Shown piece after piece: positions 16,625 through 27,484 of a stretch of 27,484 bases of DNA (position 1 is the first letter of the stretch; every line of letters begins with the position of its first letter). A program made the translations under genes and the position numbers. The notes beneath the pieces were generated by a model. That model worked only from the letters and a program-made list of their open reading frames with translations. It made no database searches and was not told the origin of the DNA. The DNA comes from an uncultured Eubacteriales bacterium. Lineage in GTDB: Bacteria > Bacillota > Clostridia > Oscillospirales > Acutalibacteraceae. The stretch lies in assembly GCA_900321665.1 (NCBI GenBank), contig ONWY01000001.1, positions 1 to 27,484 of the forward strand, written 5' to 3'.

Positions 16625-18829
16625 TTACATACTTGCTCTTTCAACACTGATAATATTATCGACCTTTTTCAATCTCGCAAGAAAGTTGTTTAAATGCTCG
16701 GTATTATCCACCACAATGCCTAAGGTGATAATGGAATTGCCGTTTTTAAGCACCCTTGCCTCGATATTGGAAATATTAATTTTTATCTCATAGCATGCCT
16801 TCATAATATCTGCCAAGAGGTTTTCCCTATCAATACAGAAAATACTCAATGTTGTGTTGAGATTAAATTTAATATCATCATCCCAATAGGCATTCAACCA
16901 CCTGCCGGGCTCTTCACTTTCGGCAATATCCCGCGGTACATTCATACAGTCTCTCTTGTGGATAGAAACACCGTGACCTCTTGTGATAAAGCCGATAATT
17001 CTGTCACCCGGCAACGGATTACAACACTTCGAGAGCTTAATTTGGCAATCGTCGAAGCCCTCTACAATGATGCCGTCTTTATTGGAAAGCGAGTGGCGGT
17101 TTGGTTGCGGCATTGCAGGCTTTGGCGGCAATGCATCGGAATCCTCCAAGACAAATTGTTTATACAGGTCTTTAATCGAGGGCATAATCCTGGAAACGGA
17201 AATGCCGCCGTAGCCGATTTTTGCATAAAGCTCATCCGCTGTATTGCACTTTTGGCGCGCCACTAAGCGATTGATAAACTCATCGTATTTATCATCACTT
17301 AAGCGGATATAATTGCGCTTAAATTCCTTTTCAAGCTCTGATTTTCCGGCAACAATGTTTTCCTCGCGCTTTTCCTTTTTAAACCAGGAGCGGATTTTAT
17401 TGCGCGCTTCGCTTGTTCTGACAATGTTCAGCCAATCTCTGCTCGGTCCTTTATCCTCCTGCTTTGTGGTGATAATATCGCAAATCTCACCGGTGTGCAG
17501 AATGTAATCGAGCGGCACCATTCTGCCGTTTACCTTGGCACCTGTCATTTTATGGCCGACTTGGGTGTGAATGGCATAGGCAAAATCTATAATTGTAGAA
17601 TTTTTTGGCAGTGTTTTCACATCGCCTTGCGGGGTAAATACAAAAACTTCTTCAAATTCCAAGTCACTTTTGACAGTGTAAAGAAATTCTTCCGGGGTTT
17701 CGCCGTCGGTTTGCTCATTTTGCTTGTCAACCATCTCATGTATCCAGGCAATTTTTTCATCAAATTTATCATCCTTACCCTTAACACCGGATTTATATTT
17801 CCAATGGGCGGCGATACCGTATTCCGCGGTGCGATGCATTTCCCAAGTTCTGATTTGTACCTCGAAGGGTATTCCCTCTTTGCCAATCACCGTAGAGTGC
17901 AAGGATTGGTACATATTCGGCTTCGGTGTTGCAATATAGTCTTTAAACCTGCCGGGAATCGGGCGGAACATATCGTGGATGACACCTAAGCAGTTGTAGC
18001 AATCATTGACCGAATCCACAATAATGCGCACGGCATAAATATCATAGATTTCATCAAAAGAGCGGTTTTGCATATACATTTTGCGGTAGATACCGGTCAC
18101 GGATTTAATTCTGCCGTCAATATGCGGGTTTTCCACGGTTTCCTTTAATCTTTCGGATATCTTGCGAATGATGGAAGGGATTAAATCCTTGCTGACAACG
18201 CTGTTTTGCGATAATCTGTTTTTGATTTCCTCGTAACCGACCGGGTCAAGGTGGCGAATTGCCAAATCCTCCAACTCTTCCTTGAGTGCGCGAATACCGA
18301 GGCGGTGCGCAATCGGCGCAAAGATTTCGAGCGTTTCCAATGCCTTTTCCCTGCGTTTGGCTTCATACATAAAATCAAGCGTGCGCATATTGTGCAAGCG
18401 GTCTGCGAGCTTGATGATGATAACACGCACATCCTCCGCCATGGCAAGGAGCATTTTGCGGATGTTTTCCGCTTGCTGCTCCACCTTGCTTTTGATATCT
18501 ACCTTGCCGAGCTTGGTCACGCCTTCCACTAAAAAGGCAACATCCTTGCCAAACTCCTTTTCGACATCCTCCTTGGTTTCATCGGTGTCTTCAATCACAT
18601 CGTGCAGCAAAGCGGCAACAATGCTTTGGGTATCTAAGCCGAGAGAAACAAGAATTTTCGCCACTTCAATCGGGTGAATTATATACGGCTCGCCGGAAAA
18701 GCGGGTTTGCCCCGCATGGAGCGCCTCCGCTTTTTTGTATGCTTTTATGATTAAATCTCTATCGTATGAATTGCTTTCATCTACCATTGAAAGCAATTCA
18801 TCAAAGCCGTTTCCAAATTGTTTGTCCAA
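16625..18829 (-). CDS. relA: bifunctional (p)ppGpp synthetase/hydrolase Rel
   Basis: HD hydrolase motif [21 protein letters not shown], synthetase RIKS/YQSLH/EVQIRT, TGS and ACT domains. Confidence 0.97.
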
Positions 18830-18841
18830 AAAATATCACCT

Positions 18842-20887
18842 CTAAAGTGTTTCGCTTAATTGTAACATATGTTGAAATAGTGCAGAGTCCGGAATATTCA
18901 CTTTTGTCGGCTCAATCGGCAAATCGATTCTGCCTCTTTCGGTATCCTCAATGACCAAACCGAGCTCCTTCATAATTTCAAGCGACAGGCGCATTTGCGC
19001 ATAATTCATGATTACAGGCCTTAAATTCATATATAGCTCTTCAAGCGAGAATTTCCAGCCGTTATTATCGCGCAAAAAGCGATAAATTTGTGCAATGTGG
19101 TCGCGATTGGTTAAAATGTAATCTATCTCTTTACGATTGGTTTCGCGGCGCACAAAGTTTTCAAAAACACGCATACCGCTGACAATGTTATCATCCGAAA
19201 AGCCGCTATAGCGAATCGCTTTTAAAAAGAGCGAAACGGTTGTTTTACCGTAGTATTCATTTTTTTCGACACTCAGCGCCAAATCGACTGTATCCCCTTT
19301 TCGATACGGTACGGAGGTGGTGGAATAGCCGAAATATATCACGCTGAAGGTTGTGTTGTTTTTGGCAAGGGTAAGCTTGATGTGCTTGTTGCCGCTTATA
19401 GGAGAAATCATGATGATTTGTGCTTTAAATATACCGAAAATCGGTTTGGCATTTCCCATGCCGAAGGGCTGAAAGCGCTCAATGGCATACAAAGTATCCA
19501 AAGAAATGGAAGCGGGGTTGATTTTAAAATCAATATTGATTTCACCCGAGGGCATATAGCGAAACATTTTAGCGGCATAATCATTAATCAGCGCGCGAAA
19601 TTCCTCTACCCTCTCGCGTTTGACGGAAAGACCGGCAGCTAAAGTATGTCCGCCGAATTTTTCAAGGCAATCACAGCAGGCACTGAGTGCTTCAAAAATA
19701 TCAAAGCCCTTGATACTGCGGCAGGAGCCTTTTAAGACAGTTTCGCCGCTATCGGCAATGATAATGCACGGCTTGCCGAACTGCTCGCAAATTTTAGAGG
19801 CTACAATGCCGGAAATGCCACTGTTCCAGCCGGGCGCGCTCAGTACCAGCACTCTGTCCCTTGCATAGGATTCATCGGTAAGAATATCCAGCGCGTCCTC
19901 CAACATCTCGCTTTCAATGCGGATGCGCTGTGTATTGCACTCGTTAATTTCTTCTGCCAGGCGAATCGCTGTATCGGCATCCTCCGTAATCAACAGCTCT
20001 ACGGCTTTTGCAGCAGATGCAATTCTGCCGGAAGCATTGATACGCGGCGATAAAACAAATGCGATATCGCCGGAGTTTAACGCTTTATCGCCCACACCGG
20101 CAACACCTTTCAGTGCTGCAATCCCTAAGCGCTTGGTATTATTAATCAGCTCTAAGCCTTTTTTAATTAAAAATCTGTTTTCCCCGGTCACGGGAACAAT
20201 ATCGGCAATGGTACCGATACATATTAAATCCGCATATTCCTCGAGGATTTCTTCTTCGCCGCCGGCAATCGCGCATACAAGCTTAAATGCCACCCCGACA
20301 CCTGCCCAATCCTCGTATTCACACTCGCTGTCATTGCGGTGCGGATTGACAACCGCAACTGCATCCGGCAAAAGCGTGCCCTGCATATGGTGGTCGGTCA
20401 CGACAACATCTATCCCATGCTCGGCGGCAAAAGCAACCTCATCGAGAGCGCTGATGCCGTTGTCCACCGTGACAATTAAGGTGATTTGTCGCTCGATGAA
20501 TTTTTCAATTGCACCTTTACTTAATCCGTAGCCCTCAAGGTTGCGGTCCGGTACATAATAAATCACATCGGCATCGACGCTCTTTAAGTAGGAATACAAA
20601 AGTGCAGTAGCGGTGACACCGTCGCAATCGAAATCGCCGAAAATCGCAATTTTTTCATGCGTATCAATCGCTCTGCCGATGCGGTCAACCGCCAAATCCA
20701 TATCCGGGAGAGTAAACGGGTCTATATACTGATAATCGTCGCTGAAAAAAGTATGGATTTCCTCCGGGTCAGTCATCCCCCTTGCCGATAACAAAACGGC
20801 ACTGACCGCATCAATATCACAGGTATCCATCAACTCTTTTGCGGTTTGCTTATCATATTGTGAGATATTCCATCGCTTAAACGCCAA
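18842..20887 (-). CDS. recJ: single-stranded-DNA-specific exonuclease RecJ
   Basis: GDFDCDG, TVDNG, TDHH, GTIADIVP, PRINASGR, GGH (DHHA1). Confidence 0.96.
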   Translation of the reverse strand: MAFKRWNISQYDKQTAKELMDTCDIDAVSAVLLSARGMTDPEEIHTFFSDDYQYIDPFTLPDMDLAVDRIGRAIDTHEKIAIFGDFDCDGVTATALLYSYLKSVDADVIYYVPDRNLEGYGLSKGAIEKFIERQITLIVTVDNGISALDEVAFAAEHGIDVVVTDHHMQGTLLPDAVAVVNPHRNDSECEYEDWAGVGVAFKLVCAIAGGEEEILEEYADLICIGTIADIVPVTGENRFLIKKGLELINNTKRLGIAALKGVAGVGDKALNSGDIAFVLSPRINASGRIASAAKAVELLITEDADTAIRLAEEINECNTQRIRIESEMLEDALDILTDESYARDRVLVLSAPGWNSGISGIVASKICEQFGKPCIIIADSGETVLKGSCRSIKGFDIFEALSACCDCLEKFGGHTLAAGLSVKRERVEEFRALINDYAAKMFRYMPSGEINIDFKINPASISLDTLYAIERFQPFGMGNAKPIFGIFKAQIIMISPISGNKHIKLTLAKNNTTFSVIYFGYSTTSVPYRKGDTVDLALSVEKNEYYGKTTVSLFLKAIRYSGFSDDNIVSGMRVFENFVRRETNRKEIDYILTNRDHIAQIYRFLRDNNGWKFSLEELYMNLRPVIMNYAQMRLSLEIMKELGLVIEDTERGRIDLPIEPTKVNIPDSALFQHMLQLSETL

Positions 20888-20909: not shown

Positions 20910-23900
20910 TTAAAACTCAAACAGGCTCACTTGGTTGGTATCGGGCAAGCCTTCCAATGCGCCAAATTCATCTAATGCAGCGATAACAGCGGTAGAAACA
21001 CCGCTTTTGGAGGCGAAATCCTCCTTGGAGATGAAAGATTCATCTCCCTGTTGTTGCACGGCATCATAGATTGCCTTTGCTGCATTGGTGCCGACACCGT
21101 CGAGCGCGGAAAACGGCAAGCGAAGCTTGTCGCCTTCTATTTTATAGACTCTCCAATCGGATTTATACAAATCCACAGGCAGGAAACCGAAGCCTCTGGC
21201 AAGCATTTCAACGACAATTTTCATAATATCGTACTGCGCTTGCTCTTTATCGCTCGCTTCCTTCCCCTTAGCAGTGATTTCCGCCATTCTCATTTTTACC
21301 GCCTGCATGCCTTTTGAAGCTGCTAAAGAGTCTATATCCTCACCGCGCACGGTAAAGAATGCGGAGTAAAAATGAATCGGGTAATAAATCTTATACCACG
21401 CTATGCGCAGCGCTGCGATAACATAGGCAGCAGCATGCGCCTTTGGGAACATGTATTTAATTTTATAGCACGAATCAATATACCATTGCTCTACACCGAT
21501 GGTTTTCATGGCATCCTCAAAGGGCGGCAGCATTTTCGGCGCCTTTCCCTTTCTGGTGTATTCCATAATACTGAAGCAATCCTTCTTGGAAAGGGGTGAT
21601 TTGGAGCCGGTGCGCTGCTCGTAGCTTTCGGCAACGTGAATGAGGTGCGTCATAATATCATCACGGCAGCCGATAACATCGGAAATGGTACAAATCTTAT
21701 TGTTGATTAAATCTTGCGCATTTCCCAACCACACATCCGTTCCGTGTGAAAGGCCGGAAATTTGCAGTAAATCCGCAAAGGTTTTGGGTTTAGCATCGGT
21801 CAGCATGCCGATGACAAAGGGGGTGCCCATTTCCGGGATACCCAAGGTGCCGGTCGGGCAAGAGATATCCTCCGGCGTCACACCAATCGGGTCGGTAGAA
21901 ACGATTAACTCATATAACTTCGGGTCGGATAAATCCGCATCCATCACCGGGATACCGGTGGAATCCTCAAGAAATTTGTAGATGGTCGGATTATCGTGAC
22001 CGAGCTCGTCTAATTTTAAAAGGGTGTCGTGAAGGGAGTTTTTGAAATCAAAGTGGGTTGTGTAGGTACCCTTCCTCTCATCATTGGAGGGAAACTGAAT
22101 CGGGGTGAAATCCTCCACCGTGTATTCACTCGGCACAACGACCATGCCGCCCGGGTGCTGCCCTGTGGTACGCTTAATACCGGTGCAGCCAATCGTTAAG
22201 CGGTCAATTTCCGCTTTTGGAGTTGACTCACCTACACCGTGCTCATCTAAGTACTTTTTCACATAGCCAAAGGCGGTTTTATCCTTAACCGTTGCCATTG
22301 TACCGGCTTTAAAGACAAATTCCTTGCCGAATATTTCTTCGGTATAGCGGTGAATTTCGCTTTGCACATCGCCGGAAAAATTCAAGTCAATATCGGGCTC
22401 TTTATCCCCGTCAAAGCCTAAAAAGGTTTCAAAGGGTATTTCGTGGCCGTCACGCTTCATGGGTTGCCCGCACTTTGGGCAATTTTTCGGTGGCAGGTCA
22501 AATCCGGAGCCGTATTCTCCATGGAGGAAAAACTCGGAGTGCTTGCAATTCTTGCAGTAGTAATGCGGCGGCAAGGGATTTACCTCGGAGATACTGCCGA
22601 AATGCGCCACCAAAGAGGAGCCGACAGACCCTCTTGAGCCGACTAAATAGCCTCTTCTTTCGCTTTCCGCGACCAGCTTTTTGGCGATGACATATAGCAC
22701 GGCATAGCCATGAGAAATGATAGAATCCAATTCTCTTTGCAGGCGAGAAGCAATGTGCTCGGGAACCGGGTCGCCGTAAAGCTCCTTGGCTTTTTCCCAA
22801 CAGCTATCGGTTAAAATCTGTTCCGCGCCGTCAATATGCGGCTGGAAGGTGCCGGGCGGAATGGGCGGAATGTTGTCTTGAATCATATCCGCAATTTTGC
22901 CGGGATTGTCTATGACAAATTCTTTTGCCCTGCTGCCTGCCCAGGCGAAATCATCGAGCATTTCATCGGTTGTTTGAAAATACAAAGGTGCTTGATTATC
23001 CGCATCCGTAAAGCCTTTTGAGTGCATTAAGATGGCTCTGAATTTTGCATCCTTTTCATCTAAAAAGTGCACATCGCCGGTGGCAACCACGAGCTTGCCG
23101 AGCTTATCCGCCAGCGCCACGAGCTTTTGGTTGATTTTAATTAAATCCGCCTCGCTGTTGATGTTTTTATGCAGTTCCCTATCGGAGCGAATCATAAAGG
23201 CATTATTGCCGTTGGGCTGCAGCTCAATGTAATCGTAAAAGGCAGCAAGCTCTTCAAGCGTTTCATCGCTTTCCCCGCGCAAAACCGCTTGGATTAATTC
23301 ACCCTGCTCGCAGGCGGAGCCGACCAAAATGCTATCTCGCTTTTGCGCTAAGAGCGATTTCGGTATCAGCGGCCTGTTTTTGAAGGTTTTTACGCTGGAG
23401 TGCGAAACAAGCTCGTAGAGGTTCTTTCTGCCGTATTTTCTGTTTTCTTTTGCTATCTCTTTATCAAGAGAGCTGTCTTCTTTAACAAGTAAAATGATGT
23501 GATGACGGCGAAACTCCTTTAATTTCATATTCATAAAGTCAGGATACAGGCTGTCATCAACTAAATAGCCTTCCATACCGAGGATAAGCTTGATACCGCA
23601 CTTTTTGGCTGCGGCATATGCCTCCGGCAAGGCTTGCACTACACCGTGGTCGGTAACGGCAATCGCTTTATGCCCCCAAGCCGCTGCGCGCTCGACAAGC
23701 TTTGTCGGTGCACTCATACCGTCCATTTCCGAAAAAGAGGTATGCAAGTGCAGCTCTACCCTCTTTTCGGCTGCCGTATCTTCCTTGATATACTTTTTGA
23801 CTGCACTGATGCAATAGGGCTCCAGCACATAGTTTTTATCATATTCATCATACTTTTGCTTGCCGACAACGAGCACGGTCTGCCCTTCATACAAATCCTT

Positions 23901-24833
23901 TCGGATTTTATTGGCAAGCGGTGCGTCTCTCATAATTTTCATTGTAAGAGACGAAGTATAGTCTGTGATTTCAATTTCTAAAATCACTTTTTTGGTGCGT
24001 GTTTCGCGCGAATCAATTTTAAAAATATCGCCCCAAACGGTGAATCTGCCGTCCTTCCCGACAATGTCTTTCATTGCGACAGGGTCTTCAAGCGGCATTT
24101 TTTTGCCAAATAATCTGACAGCACCTTCCGGATAAATCGGTGCGGTTTTTGACATTTCACCGATCGCTTTCACACTTTTTACATCATGCACCGCAATTTT
24201 AGTCACCAAATCATCTTCGCTGATAACCGCCATCACATCATCATTTAATTCCGGCGGTTGCTCTTTGTTTTCCGGCGGTGCCTGGTACTCTTCAATGGGC
24301 GGTATATCGTCGCTTATCGGCGGTTCCGGTTCCTCAATCGGTGTTTCATCCACCTTAATGCCGAGCTCAATGGGGTCAATTAATTTCACGCGGTATTTCA
24401 GTGAAAACTCCTCCTCGATAATCGTGGAGACAAGCGCGCAAAAGCCGTTTTCCTCTAAATACGCAATGTTATTATTAAGTGAGACAACTTCAATGGTGTT
24501 GCCATTAATGCGAGACATGGTTTTTTTTAAAAAGTTATTGAGTACAGGCTTTCTGAACTTTGCTTCCAAAACAACCTGCGAAAAATACTGCTCAATAAAG
24601 CTTTCCTTCGGGTAGTGCGGAATAATATGTACAGAATTGATGGAAAGCGTATTTTGAAGGTATTTCTGCGCATTAAAAATGTAGCTTTTGCGCATCAGAG
24701 TGCCGTATTCGGCATAAATTGTGACCGCCTTTAAAGCCTTGCTAACCTCAATGTGTGCAATTTCACCTTGTCCGACCTTTTGCAGCTCTTCCCCAACTTC
24801 ACCAACATAAAAATCGCAAATTCTTTTCATCAA
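20910..24833 (-). CDS. polC: DNA polymerase III PolC-type alpha subunit lacking the internal 3'-5' exonuclease domain
   Basis: OB fold, PHP (ELHLHT, TDHG), GSRGSVGSS, Zn finger CKNC..CPKC, PDIDLNFSG, TTGQHPGG, YMFPKAHAAAY; 1307 aa. Confidence 0.95.
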   Translation of the reverse strand: MMKRICDFYVGEVGEELQKVGQGEIAHIEVSKALKAVTIYAEYGTLMRKSYIFNAQKYLQNTLSINSVHIIPHYPKESFIEQYFSQVVLEAKFRKPVLNNFLKKTMSRINGNTIEVVSLNNNIAYLEENGFCALVSTIIEEEFSLKYRVKLIDPIELGIKVDETPIEEPEPPISDDIPPIEEYQAPPENKEQPPELNDDVMAVISEDDLVTKIAVHDVKSVKAIGEMSKTAPIYPEGAVRLFGKKMPLEDPVAMKDIVGKDGRFTVWGDIFKIDSRETRTKKVILEIEITDYTSSLTMKIMRDAPLANKIRKDLYEGQTVLVVGKQKYDEYDKNYVLEPYCISAVKKYIKEDTAAEKRVELHLHTSFSEMDGMSAPTKLVERAAAWGHKAIAVTDHGVVQALPEAYAAAKKCGIKLILGMEGYLVDDSLYPDFMNMKLKEFRRHHIILLVKEDSSLDKEIAKENRKYGRKNLYELVSHSSVKTFKNRPLIPKSLLAQKRDSILVGSACEQGELIQAVLRGESDETLEELAAFYDYIELQPNGNNAFMIRSDRELHKNINSEADLIKINQKLVALADKLGKLVVATGDVHFLDEKDAKFRAILMHSKGFTDADNQAPLYFQTTDEMLDDFAWAGSRAKEFVIDNPGKIADMIQDNIPPIPPGTFQPHIDGAEQILTDSCWEKAKELYGDPVPEHIASRLQRELDSIISHGYAVLYVIAKKLVAESERRGYLVGSRGSVGSSLVAHFGSISEVNPLPPHYYCKNCKHSEFFLHGEYGSGFDLPPKNCPKCGQPMKRDGHEIPFETFLGFDGDKEPDIDLNFSGDVQSEIHRYTEEIFGKEFVFKAGTMATVKDKTAFGYVKKYLDEHGVGESTPKAEIDRLTIGCTGIKRTTGQHPGGMVVVPSEYTVEDFTPIQFPSNDERKGTYTTHFDFKNSLHDTLLKLDELGHDNPTIYKFLEDSTGIPVMDADLSDPKLYELIVSTDPIGVTPEDISCPTGTLGIPEMGTPFVIGMLTDAKPKTFADLLQISGLSHGTDVWLGNAQDLINNKICTISDVIGCRDDIMTHLIHVAESYEQRTGSKSPLSKKDCFSIMEYTRKGKAPKMLPPFEDAMKTIGVEQWYIDSCYKIKYMFPKAHAAAYVIAALRIAWYKIYYPIHFYSAFFTVRGEDIDSLAASKGMQAVKMRMAEITAKGKEASDKEQAQYDIMKIVVEMLARGFGFLPVDLYKSDWRVYKIEGDKLRLPFSALDGVGTNAAKAIYDAVQQQGDESFISKEDFASKSGVSTAVIAALDEFGALEGLPDTNQVSLFEF

Positions 24834-24839
24834 TACACC

Positions 24840-25883
24840 TTATAATGTTTCAATTTCCTCAAATAATTTATCAATTAATTCGTTTTCCGGCACCTTCATA
24901 ATGGTTTTGCCTTTTTTAAATAAGAGACCTTCACCGTCGCCGCCGGCAATACCGATATCTGCTTCTCGCGCTTCTCCGGGACCGTTGACAATGCAGCCCA
25001 TCACGGCTACTTTAATCGGCTTGTGAACATCCTTTAAGCGCTTTTCAACCTCAGAGGCAAGATGAATCAAATCAATTTTGGTTCTCCCGCAGGTAGGGCA
25101 ACTGATGAGATACGGCTCGTCCTTTTTCATATCGAGCGCTTTTAAAATTTGGTTGGCAGCATCTATTTCTTCCACCGGGTCAGCAGTAAGAGAAACTCTT
25201 ATTGTATCGCCTATACCCTCGTGTAGAAGTGCACCGATACCGATGGCGGATTTGACTATGCCCATTTGCTTGGTACCGGCTTCCGTTACGCCTAAATGCA
25301 ACGGATACGGGCACTTTTGAGCTAAAAGACGGTATGCTTCAATCATGGTGTGCACATGAGAGGATTTTAAAGAAATAACGATATCCGTAAAATCAAATTT
25401 TTCCAATAATGATGCGTGGTAAAGGGCGCTTTCCACTAATGCCTCGGCGCAGGGAGAGCCGTATTTATTTAAAATATTTTTTTCCAAAGAGCCGGAATTC
25501 ACACCGATGCGAATCGGAATACCGTACTCCTTGCAGGTATCGGCGACCGCCTTTACTCTGCTGTCATCGCCAATGTTGCCGGGGTTGATTCTGATTTTGT
25601 CGACGCCCGCCTTGGCACAAGCAATCGCAATGCGATAATCAAAGTGAATATCTGCCACTACAGGCATGTGCACTTCTTTTTTTAGAGCAGTAATCAGTGC
25701 GGCATTTTCAATGCGCGGTACCGCGGCGCGAATAATCTCGCACCCTGCCTTTTCCAGGCGCAGCGCCTGTTCCACATTGCCGCGAATGTCATCTGCCGGT
25801 ACATTGAGCATGGATTGCACCGCGACCGGGTGACCGCCGCCAATGGTAAGATTTCCGATTTTAACTTCTTTTGACTGTCGCAT
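24840..25883 (-). CDS. ispG: (E)-4-hydroxy-3-methylbut-2-enyl-diphosphate synthase
   Basis: VADIHFDY, RINPGNIG, IRIGVNSGSL, HLGVTEAG, GDTIRVSL, CPTCGR, GCIVNGPGE. Confidence 0.98.
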   Translation of the reverse strand: MRQSKEVKIGNLTIGGGHPVAVQSMLNVPADDIRGNVEQALRLEKAGCEIIRAAVPRIENAALITALKKEVHMPVVADIHFDYRIAIACAKAGVDKIRINPGNIGDDSRVKAVADTCKEYGIPIRIGVNSGSLEKNILNKYGSPCAEALVESALYHASLLEKFDFTDIVISLKSSHVHTMIEAYRLLAQKCPYPLHLGVTEAGTKQMGIVKSAIGIGALLHEGIGDTIRVSLTADPVEEIDAANQILKALDMKKDEPYLISCPTCGRTKIDLIHLASEVEKRLKDVHKPIKVAVMGCIVNGPGEAREADIGIAGGDGEGLLFKKGKTIMKVPENELIDKLFEEIETL

Positions 25884-25885
25884 AA

Positions 25886-26947
25886 TTACCCCTTAAAAAT
25901 ATTGATAATATCATTTGCCGAAACAATGGCGATAAAAATTAATAATATGACCAAACCGACTGTGTTGATTAACGCTTCGTGCTTAATCTTAATTTTATCT
26001 CTTGTGATACCTTGAATGATAAGGATGAATAACCTGCCGCCGTCCAGCGCCGGAATCGGTAAAAGGTTAAAAACACCGATATTGATGGAAATAAAGGCGA
26101 TAATAAACATTAAGTTTTCAAAGCCGTAGGAGGTGGATTCCGCCACCGCTTTAACCGTTCCGATAGGTCCCGAAAGCTCCGAAAAACCGATTTGCCCCGT
26201 AAACAGGTCATAAAGGCTGATAAAGACCAGGCGCGCAAAAGAAACGGTTTGCTTGGCACCTGCGGCAATAGAAGTAAAAAAAGTCGGTTTTTGACCTAAT
26301 AGCTTAAAATCATAGCGAATAATGACTTTGTTTTTACCGTAGGCTTTATCGCTTTGCTCGGTTTCAAAGGTGACATCTTTGAGCAACTTCTTTTCGCCGT
26401 CGCGCTTCACAAGGAAATCCACCTTGCCGTCATCATCGCGCATTAAGCCGATTTGAATATCGTAATCGGATATGCACCGCATACCGTTGATGCTGATGAC
26501 TTCATCCCCTTCTTTTAAAAACCGATTGCTGATTGCCTCATCGGAGAATTGCGCAATGGTTTTGGTGCCGATTAAAGGTTGTGCGGAGAGTAAAACCGTG
26601 ATAATGAGAAATCCTGTGAAAATATTCATCAAAGCGCCGGCTGCGATGATGAAAAAGCGCTTCGGCTTGCTTGCGCGCTGAAATGCGCGGGCATCTTCAC
26701 TCTCATCATCCTCGCCTTCCATGGCGCAGTAGCCGCCAATCGGAAAGAGCCTCAGGGTATATTTTGTTTCCTTTTTGCCGAATTGAATCAGCTTCGGCCC
26801 CATGCCGATGGCAAATTCATTCACTTTCACACCGCTGAGCTTTGCTGCAATAAAATGCGCAAATTCATGCACAAAGATAATCACGCAAAACAGTGCTATT
26901 GCAACCGCAAACGGCCAAACTTTTTGAAATACAGCAGCTATACTCAA
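25886..26947 (-). CDS. rseP: RseP/RasP intramembrane zinc metalloprotease (M50)
   Basis: HEFAH (HExxH), FAIGMGP, PDZ-like region, NLLPIPALDGG; TTG start with GGGAG RBS. Confidence 0.95.
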   Translation of the reverse strand: MSIAAVFQKVWPFAVAIALFCVIIFVHEFAHFIAAKLSGVKVNEFAIGMGPKLIQFGKKETKYTLRLFPIGGYCAMEGEDDESEDARAFQRASKPKRFFIIAAGALMNIFTGFLIITVLLSAQPLIGTKTIAQFSDEAISNRFLKEGDEVISINGMRCISDYDIQIGLMRDDDGKVDFLVKRDGEKKLLKDVTFETEQSDKAYGKNKVIIRYDFKLLGQKPTFFTSIAAGAKQTVSFARLVFISLYDLFTGQIGFSELSGPIGTVKAVAESTSYGFENLMFIIAFISINIGVFNLLPIPALDGGRLFILIIQGITRDKIKIKHEALINTVGLVILLIFIAIVSANDIINIFKG

Positions 26948-26959
26948 AAAAGAAACTCC

Positions 26960-27403
26960 CTATTTAATATTTTCAAGCACATATTCCCTCGCCTGCTTGT
27001 CGGCGGCAAAAATATCCTCCAAAGTGATATTGCTCGCTTGCGGTGCTCTTTCCATCGCTTCGCGCACAACAAGCGGAATTTCATAAAAGCGGATTTTGTC
27101 TTCTAAAAACAGCTTCACAGCCGCTTCATTCGCACCGTTTGCCGCTGCCGGGTAAACACCGCCCTTTTGAATGGCATCGCGACAAATGTCGATACACTTA
27201 AATGTATTATAATCCGGTTCATAAAATGTCAATTTCGGGTAATCCGCAAAGGAAAGCGTGCTTACCGGTGACTCAAAGCGCTCGGGATAAGTCAGTGCGT
27301 ACTGAATCGGAATGCGCATATCCGGCACCCCCATTTGAGCAATAATGGAGTTGTCCTGAAACTCTATCATAGAGTGGACAATGCTCTCTCTGTGCACAAC
27401 GAT
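26960..27403 (-). CDS. dxr: 1-deoxy-D-xylulose 5-phosphate reductoisomerase, C-terminal part only
   Basis: IVVHRESIVHSMIEFQDNS, PDMRIPIQYAL, NGANEAAV..FL; precedes rseP as usual. The sequence beyond about 27403 is not Dxr-like. Confidence 0.92.
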   Translation of the reverse strand: MVVHRESIVHSMIEFQDNSIIAQMGVPDMRIPIQYALTYPERFESPVSTLSFADYPKLTFYEPDYNTFKCIDICRDAIQKGGVYPAAANGANEAAVKLFLEDKIRFYEIPLVVREAMERAPQASNITLEDIFAADKQAREYVLENIK

Positions 27404-27484
27404 ATGGTTGCCTTCGCTGTCAACCACCGCCACACCCTCGTCGGCGTCATATCCTTCCACGGTGGCTATTTTTCCATTGAAGAA
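27404..27484 (-). other. non-Dxr coding fragment fused in frame to dxr at the window edge
   Basis: Reads FFNGKIATVEGYDADEGVAVVDSEGNH where Dxr should read roughly NKGLE.IEA.WLF; the other two minus-strand frames contain stops. Confidence 0.7.

Follow-up and report, generated by a model that had tools for sequence, protein, structure and literature searches.

An exonuclease-less PolC with an intact PHP metal site from a clostridial lineage of the Acutalibacteraceae

The polC locus and its shortened junction

We analysed a stretch of 27,484 nt (the window) that carries polC on the minus strand (20910..24833), a gene with a TTG start that encodes an exonuclease-less PolC-type DNA polymerase III alpha subunit of 1307 aa. 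Upstream on the same strand lie the housekeeping genes dxr (cut by the contig end), rseP and ispG (24840..27484), and downstream recJ and relA/spoT (16625..20887, also minus); no DEDDh exonuclease gene was found in the window. All features of polC given below are on the minus strand.

The product scores 1371.7 bits against NF001688 (cut-off 873) and 1233.4 against TIGR01405 (cut-off 1043.45), and its best relatives among solved structures are 3F2B and 9QPC. PHP, Pol III alpha, finger and HhH domains are detected by Pfam. The N-terminal region (residues 1 to about 230; 24144..24833), made up of the NI/NII subdomains and an acidic linker, matches PF14480 (E 0.1) and PF11490 (E 0.023) only weakly and below cut-off; the two families are annotated in many homologues. 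It is followed by an OB domain with approximate boundaries (residues about 240–350; 23784..24116), recognizable from its alignment to the OB regions of 3F2B and 9QPC. The first half of the PHP domain (PF02811; 23553..23765) supplies metal ligands His362, His364, Asp371, His396 and Glu421, and the second half (22869..23510) His445, Cys508, Asp587 and His589. By homology, Asp814 and Asp816 (22386..22394) and Asp942 (22008–22010) would be the catalytic aspartates of the polymerase, and all three are invariant among 100 aligned PolCs. A C-terminal QVSLF motif (20919..20933), seen in the sequence and with equivalents in relatives, is presumably the beta-clamp binding site. The order expected of PolC, NTD-OB-PHP-core-HhH plus C-terminal clamp motif, is thus present, with weak Pfam matches for the NTD. 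Domain order, catalytic aspartates and clamp motif are shared with the canonical PolCs of Geobacillus kaustophilus (3F2B) and Enterococcus faecium (9QPC), and the PolC cut-offs are passed; the protein differs from them in the missing DEDDh exonuclease and in PHP position 8, which is Asp (Asp587) and not Asn. Among congeners dN/dS is 0.03–0.11 in the PHP domain and 0.03–0.06 in the core, with dS near saturation, and polC is under strong purifying selection.

Canonical PolC carries its DEDDh exonuclease inserted in the PHP domain, and here that insertion is missing. As originally predicted, GMEGYLVDD (residues 419–427) is separated from RRHH (442–445) by a linker of just 14 residues (23511–23552), and a Pfam scan of the whole protein for RNase_T was negative, with no match in residues 400–520 at E ≤ 1. 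A hidden Markov model trained on 46 exonuclease inserts from the PolCs of relatives likewise found no match in the protein at E ≤ 10; an exonuclease elsewhere in the chain was therefore found by neither search. As a positive control, the PolC of an exonuclease-bearing relative (G010) gave RNase_T at 1.5e-37. At the canonical insertion point, ligands Glu421 and His445 (23499..23573) are 24 residues apart; the corresponding span is 215 in G. kaustophilus (Glu405/His620) and 186–218 in 47 exonuclease-bearing relatives. Since most of these relatives have spans of 212–215, about 190 aa are missing. In the predicted structure of residues 340–700 (mean pLDDT 88.9), the junction is a short loop joining two PHP strands (pLDDT about 96). 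The top fold match of this model is 3F2B, an engineered delta-Exo construct that aligns with our PolC in one piece across the junction.

An assembly artefact, or a decaying copy alongside a complete polC elsewhere, has practically no chance of explaining these observations. With a completeness of just 73% and 294 contigs, the source genome does not directly exclude a second gene; a search for a second complete polC revealed one polC, together with a dnaE split across two contig ends. Nevertheless, in each of five relatives (96–100% complete, one assembled into a single contig) there is one exonuclease-less PolC and one DnaE, and purifying selection on polC is strong. The possibility of a collapsed deletion was checked on assembled contigs: those of three independent studies span positions 22900–24200 unbroken, with an identical junction, 7–9 substitutions and no gaps. 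The insert is also absent from all seven congeners and from 80 of 80 named loci of the genome collection, which belong to animal-gut Clostridia MAGs and Eubacterium coprostanoligenes; source-labelled sequencing runs are gut, bovine and sheep metagenomes. Since the deletion is common to three independent assemblies and all seven congeners, it is not an artefact, and the decaying-copy reading is already refuted by the assemblies, the named loci and the single copies of the relatives. The single joint recorded in this comparison stemmed from another, diverged contig of comparable length (657 versus 636 letters) and not from a version with the insert.

A second, degenerate PolC-like reading frame of 771 aa does occur in a relative (L045:3230-5545, G007:C16) and also in locus L046 (G001:C77). 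It has no NTD, OB or exonuclease domain, has lost the PHP ligands and lies directly upstream of an SNF2-type helicase; it is no replacement replicase.

Distribution of the exonuclease-less state

Exonuclease-less PolCs have been described before. In the survey by Timinskas et al. (NAR 2014, PMC3919608) they made up 6% of the PolCs and 16% of the systems that combine PolC with DnaE1, and nearly all came from Clostridia or Negativicutes. Our gene, which is likewise from a clostridial genome and has Clostridia MAGs and Eubacterium coprostanoligenes as its nearest named relatives, is a further member of this published variant: it is alike in the missing insertion, the pairing with DnaE1 and the conserved PHP metal site, and shows no difference in kind. 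Since the variant is already catalogued, the gene is no discovery in itself. Compared with that survey, loss is commoner in the present family, the Acutalibacteraceae, and is polyphyletic here: a query of PolC residues 350–620 matched across the junction, with no insert, in at least 55 of the 200 family genomes sampled. A count of losses within one family, DnaQ-free genomes and a catalytically dead intermediate were not found in the papers searched.

The history of the insert was followed on a tree of 100 PolC sequences from which the junction columns were left out. The set was deliberately enriched for both states, and its 53 exonuclease-less and 47 exonuclease-bearing members thus do not represent a frequency. 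The best tree has 15 changes of state, at least 10 of which are forced by well-supported branches, and a single origin, with all exonuclease-less sequences held together, is rejected (p-AU 2e-48). The Glu–His span of the 53 exonuclease-less PolCs has a median of 24 and a range of 14–40 residues, and linker sequence varies widely between lineages. Since the insert is present in most other families of the order and junction lengths are lineage-specific, repeated loss of the exonuclease within the family is the simplest reading, with a direction that we infer from these features. Recombination between polC alleles is a further conceivable route for changes of state.

Several individual cases deserve mention. 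The PolC of G045 (L243, G045:C1) has a 186-residue insert that matches the exonuclease model (E 4.6e-11) and is devoid of the DxET motif, and it is possibly an intermediate with a catalytically dead exonuclease. Loci L188 (G219, exonuclease-less) and L202 (G041, exonuclease-bearing) belong to one genus and come out as sisters in the PolC tree with support 99; they represent a recent loss and a good pair for comparison. A polC filed in the same genus as ours (L015, G002) has another junction and no extra loop and groups apart from its congeners, which reflects either an independent loss or a discord between gene and taxonomy. Locus L161 (G040) encodes a highly diverged PolC of 1334 aa on a very long branch, with an exonuclease-sized insert and apparently degenerate PHP ligands. 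At the thresholds used, the near-complete genomes G044, G221, G083, G096, G123 and G130 of the family, as well as G017 and G028, gave no PolC match; such genomes may have lost polC and rely on DnaE1 alone.

Alternatively, the lineage would have weaker proofreading and be a mild constitutive mutator, with mismatch repair absorbing most errors. We give this reading little credence. Before phylogeny is taken into account, genomes with exonuclease-less PolC have a lower median size (1.8 versus 2.2 Mb), but the difference vanishes once pairs independent in the phylogeny are compared (2.6 with, 2.1 against), and we therefore reject a link between exonuclease loss and small genomes. Some exonuclease-less tips are longer than their exonuclease-bearing sisters (G099 0.59 versus G009 0.21; G100 0.38 versus G150 0.22), whereas other sister pairs are equal in length (G219 0.19 versus G041 0.17; G167 0.24 versus G109 0.24), and protein branch length is not mutation rate. 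Moreover, the exonuclease-less state persists across a large, old clade in which mutL is retained (28 of 28 exonuclease-less genomes searched).

Stand-alone nucleases and the extra loop

The original prediction allowed for an epsilon-like subunit acting in trans: a stand-alone DEDDh nuclease would dock on PolC, perhaps on an extra loop, and proofread for it. The genome does contain two stand-alone DEDDh genes. One, present in all eight genomes of the genus, encodes a KapD-like protein of 287 aa whose C-terminal region carries pairs of cysteines. However, it occurs in 21 of 30 exonuclease-less and 26 of 30 exonuclease-bearing genomes; it thus does not track exonuclease loss, and we reject it as a PolC partner. 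The other codes for a 407-aa DEDDh-BRCT protein next to an S24 repressor, and searches of the near-complete congeners did not recover it. No stand-alone protein of the genus passes the dnaQ cut-off.

An excised PolC exonuclease encoded elsewhere in the genome was sought with an exonuclease query and the exonuclease model, and was not found. With the same query, inserts 47–90% identical were recovered in exonuclease-bearing genomes, whereas exonuclease-less genomes gave only matches of 27–38%, in 11 of 36. Eight exonuclease-less genomes (96–99% complete) yielded no RNase_T match, which falls short of proven absence. Since no excised exonuclease was found and eight exonuclease-less genomes are without an RNase_T match, an epsilon subunit in trans is disfavoured, and we regard it as very improbable. 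The arrangement also differs from the alpha–epsilon pair of Escherichia coli, with its degenerate PHP site and dedicated stand-alone DnaQ, as the PHP site is intact here and no co-occurring DnaQ was found.

The extra loop is real, being 13 residues longer than in other PolCs (23445..23480, boundaries within 1–2 residues), but it is not located at the junction itself; it sits past the next strand, which contains His445. Its suggested role as a docking site was not supported, since 43 of the 53 sampled exonuclease-less PolCs are devoid of it, a distribution that also speaks against a partner in trans. The remaining 10 belong to a single subclade, this genus and most relatives of E. coprostanoligenes, to which the loop is private. 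The nearest exonuclease-less sisters have the same junction and no loop (it is absent from G023, L124, L125, L127–L130, L132 and L134), so that exonuclease loss is older; moreover, loop length varies, reaching 24 residues in some members. The loop would be a surface insertion acquired later and independently of exonuclease loss.

With regard to the stand-alone genes themselves, the S24/Cro repressor and the DEDDh-BRCT gene that follows it (L001:117-1949, G000:C103) are probably part of a mobile element. The KapD-like DEDD nuclease with its C-terminal cysteine pairs (L176:1429-2292, L180, L002) is conserved and widespread in the family, and in G007 and G002 its gene lies downstream of one resembling the C-terminus of a topoisomerase subunit.

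The PHP site, DnaE1 and proofreading

As predicted, the PHP metal ligands are intact. All nine are present and conform to the motif HHDHEH[C/H]DH defined in a 2026 survey (PMC12926913). The set is complete in 100 of 100 PolCs, including 47 of 47 exonuclease-bearing relatives; it is the family default with or without the exonuclease, and intact ligands are therefore no sign of compensation. The ratio of PHP to core rates does not differ between PolCs with and without the exonuclease (1.16 versus 1.14, overlapping intervals), and we thus reject a tighter constraint on the PHP domain following the loss. A site that was kept before the loss fits redundancy and not a new adaptation.

Five PHP positions (402, 406, 489, 523 and 632; window positions 22938–23630) are conserved in exonuclease-bearing and variable in exonuclease-less PolCs; Leu632, for example, is found in 47 of 47 of the former and 32 of 53 of the latter, counts that ignore relatedness. 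Judged by this pattern, the positions possibly mark a former contact surface of the exonuclease.

Evidence on whether the PHP domain of PolC is a nuclease is conflicting, as it is inactive in G. kaustophilus in vitro and leads to a mutator when altered in Clostridium thermocellum. The G. kaustophilus enzyme has Asn at position 8 (PMC3666897). This is the same change as D226N in Mycobacterium tuberculosis DnaE1, which abolishes the exonuclease of that enzyme (PMC5636811), whereas our PolC has Asp at this position. The mycobacterial protein shares the nine-ligand signature and has no DnaQ domain in its chain, but it is of the DnaE type and its PHP exonuclease has been shown, while that of our PolC is inferred. 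Where PolC inserts its exonuclease, M. tuberculosis DnaE1 has a plain loop that lines the path of the primer into the PHP site (PMC5636811). A primer-splitting hairpin also guides the primer in that enzyme, whose loop, with 29 residues, is longer than the 24-residue span of our PolC; our span matches those of Thermus aquaticus DnaE (23) and the DnaE1 of our own genome (21). In C. thermocellum, which also pairs PolC with DnaE1, genetic evidence identifies PolC C669Y as a hypermutator although DnaE1 is present (bioRxiv 10.1101/2021.07.30.454558), and Cys669 corresponds to ligand Cys508 here. It should be noted that this PolC keeps its exonuclease and that a bulky Tyr replaces Cys, and the mutation could therefore act by distorting the fold. 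We found no paper reporting exonuclease activity in a PolC PHP domain, and the only one reported as tested is inactive.

The PolC PHP domain might instead be structural or have another phosphoesterase role, with DnaE1 either synthesizing most of the DNA or proofreading the errors of PolC in trans. The possibility was raised by Timinskas et al. (PMC3919608) because every exonuclease-less PolC co-occurs with DnaE1, and this co-occurrence, with an intact PHP domain and a clamp motif in DnaE1, is also seen in the present lineage. DnaE1 has nine of nine PHP ligands in 18 of 18 genomes checked, as does the split dnaE of our own genome, and in congeners it is full length (about 1147 aa) with the clamp motif QVGFF. 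These proteins score above the NF005298 cut-off and were assigned to DnaE1 rather than DnaE3 by signatures, not by a tree. Proofreading in trans between the two polymerases has been reported for Bacillus subtilis, in the opposite direction, and the inactive G. kaustophilus PHP domain also favours a structural role. Nevertheless, we consider a non-proofreading PolC PHP domain rather unlikely, as purifying selection on PolC is strong and its catalytic and clamp motifs are preserved, and as the C. thermocellum PHP mutant is a mutator despite the presence of DnaE1. Reading frames of 1451–1462 aa in G003, G005 and G007, which suggested a DnaE with a fused exonuclease, proved to be loci with a normal DnaE of 1147 aa; the extra length probably comes from an in-frame upstream gene.

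Proofreading by the PHP domain is the best-supported of the three options originally put forward, on the strength of literature and homology. We consider it reasonably probable that the exonuclease-less PolC proofreads through the zinc-type site of its PHP domain, with support from mismatch repair and from a DnaE1 whose PHP site is intact. An ancestor would have lost the inserted DnaQ-like exonuclease through an in-frame deletion, one of many in the family, and redundancy of the module would have made the loss tolerable; three candidate proofreaders are usual in Clostridia (PMC12926913). Mispaired 3′ ends would then be removed by PolC's own PHP site, as in mycobacterial DnaE1, while the DnaE1 PHP domain and mismatch repair would serve as back-up. 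The protein is best explained as a functional chromosomal PolC in a rumen lineage of Clostridia whose replication system combines PolC with DnaE1.

A natural exonuclease-less PolC is a test case for PHP proofreading that is free of confounding DnaQ activity. The family offers close sister pairs with and without the exonuclease for comparison, and a cultured relative, E. coprostanoligenes ATCC 51222 (locus L122), has the same junction. The chances are about even that the exonuclease-less PolCs of the family are true PHP-only proofreading replicases, in which a redundant DnaQ insert was shed at least ten times, in some cases via a dead intermediate such as that of G045, with some members lacking any RNase_T-family protein. 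If true, PHP-only proofreading in these bacteria would for the first time directly document a PolC PHP domain with nuclease activity.
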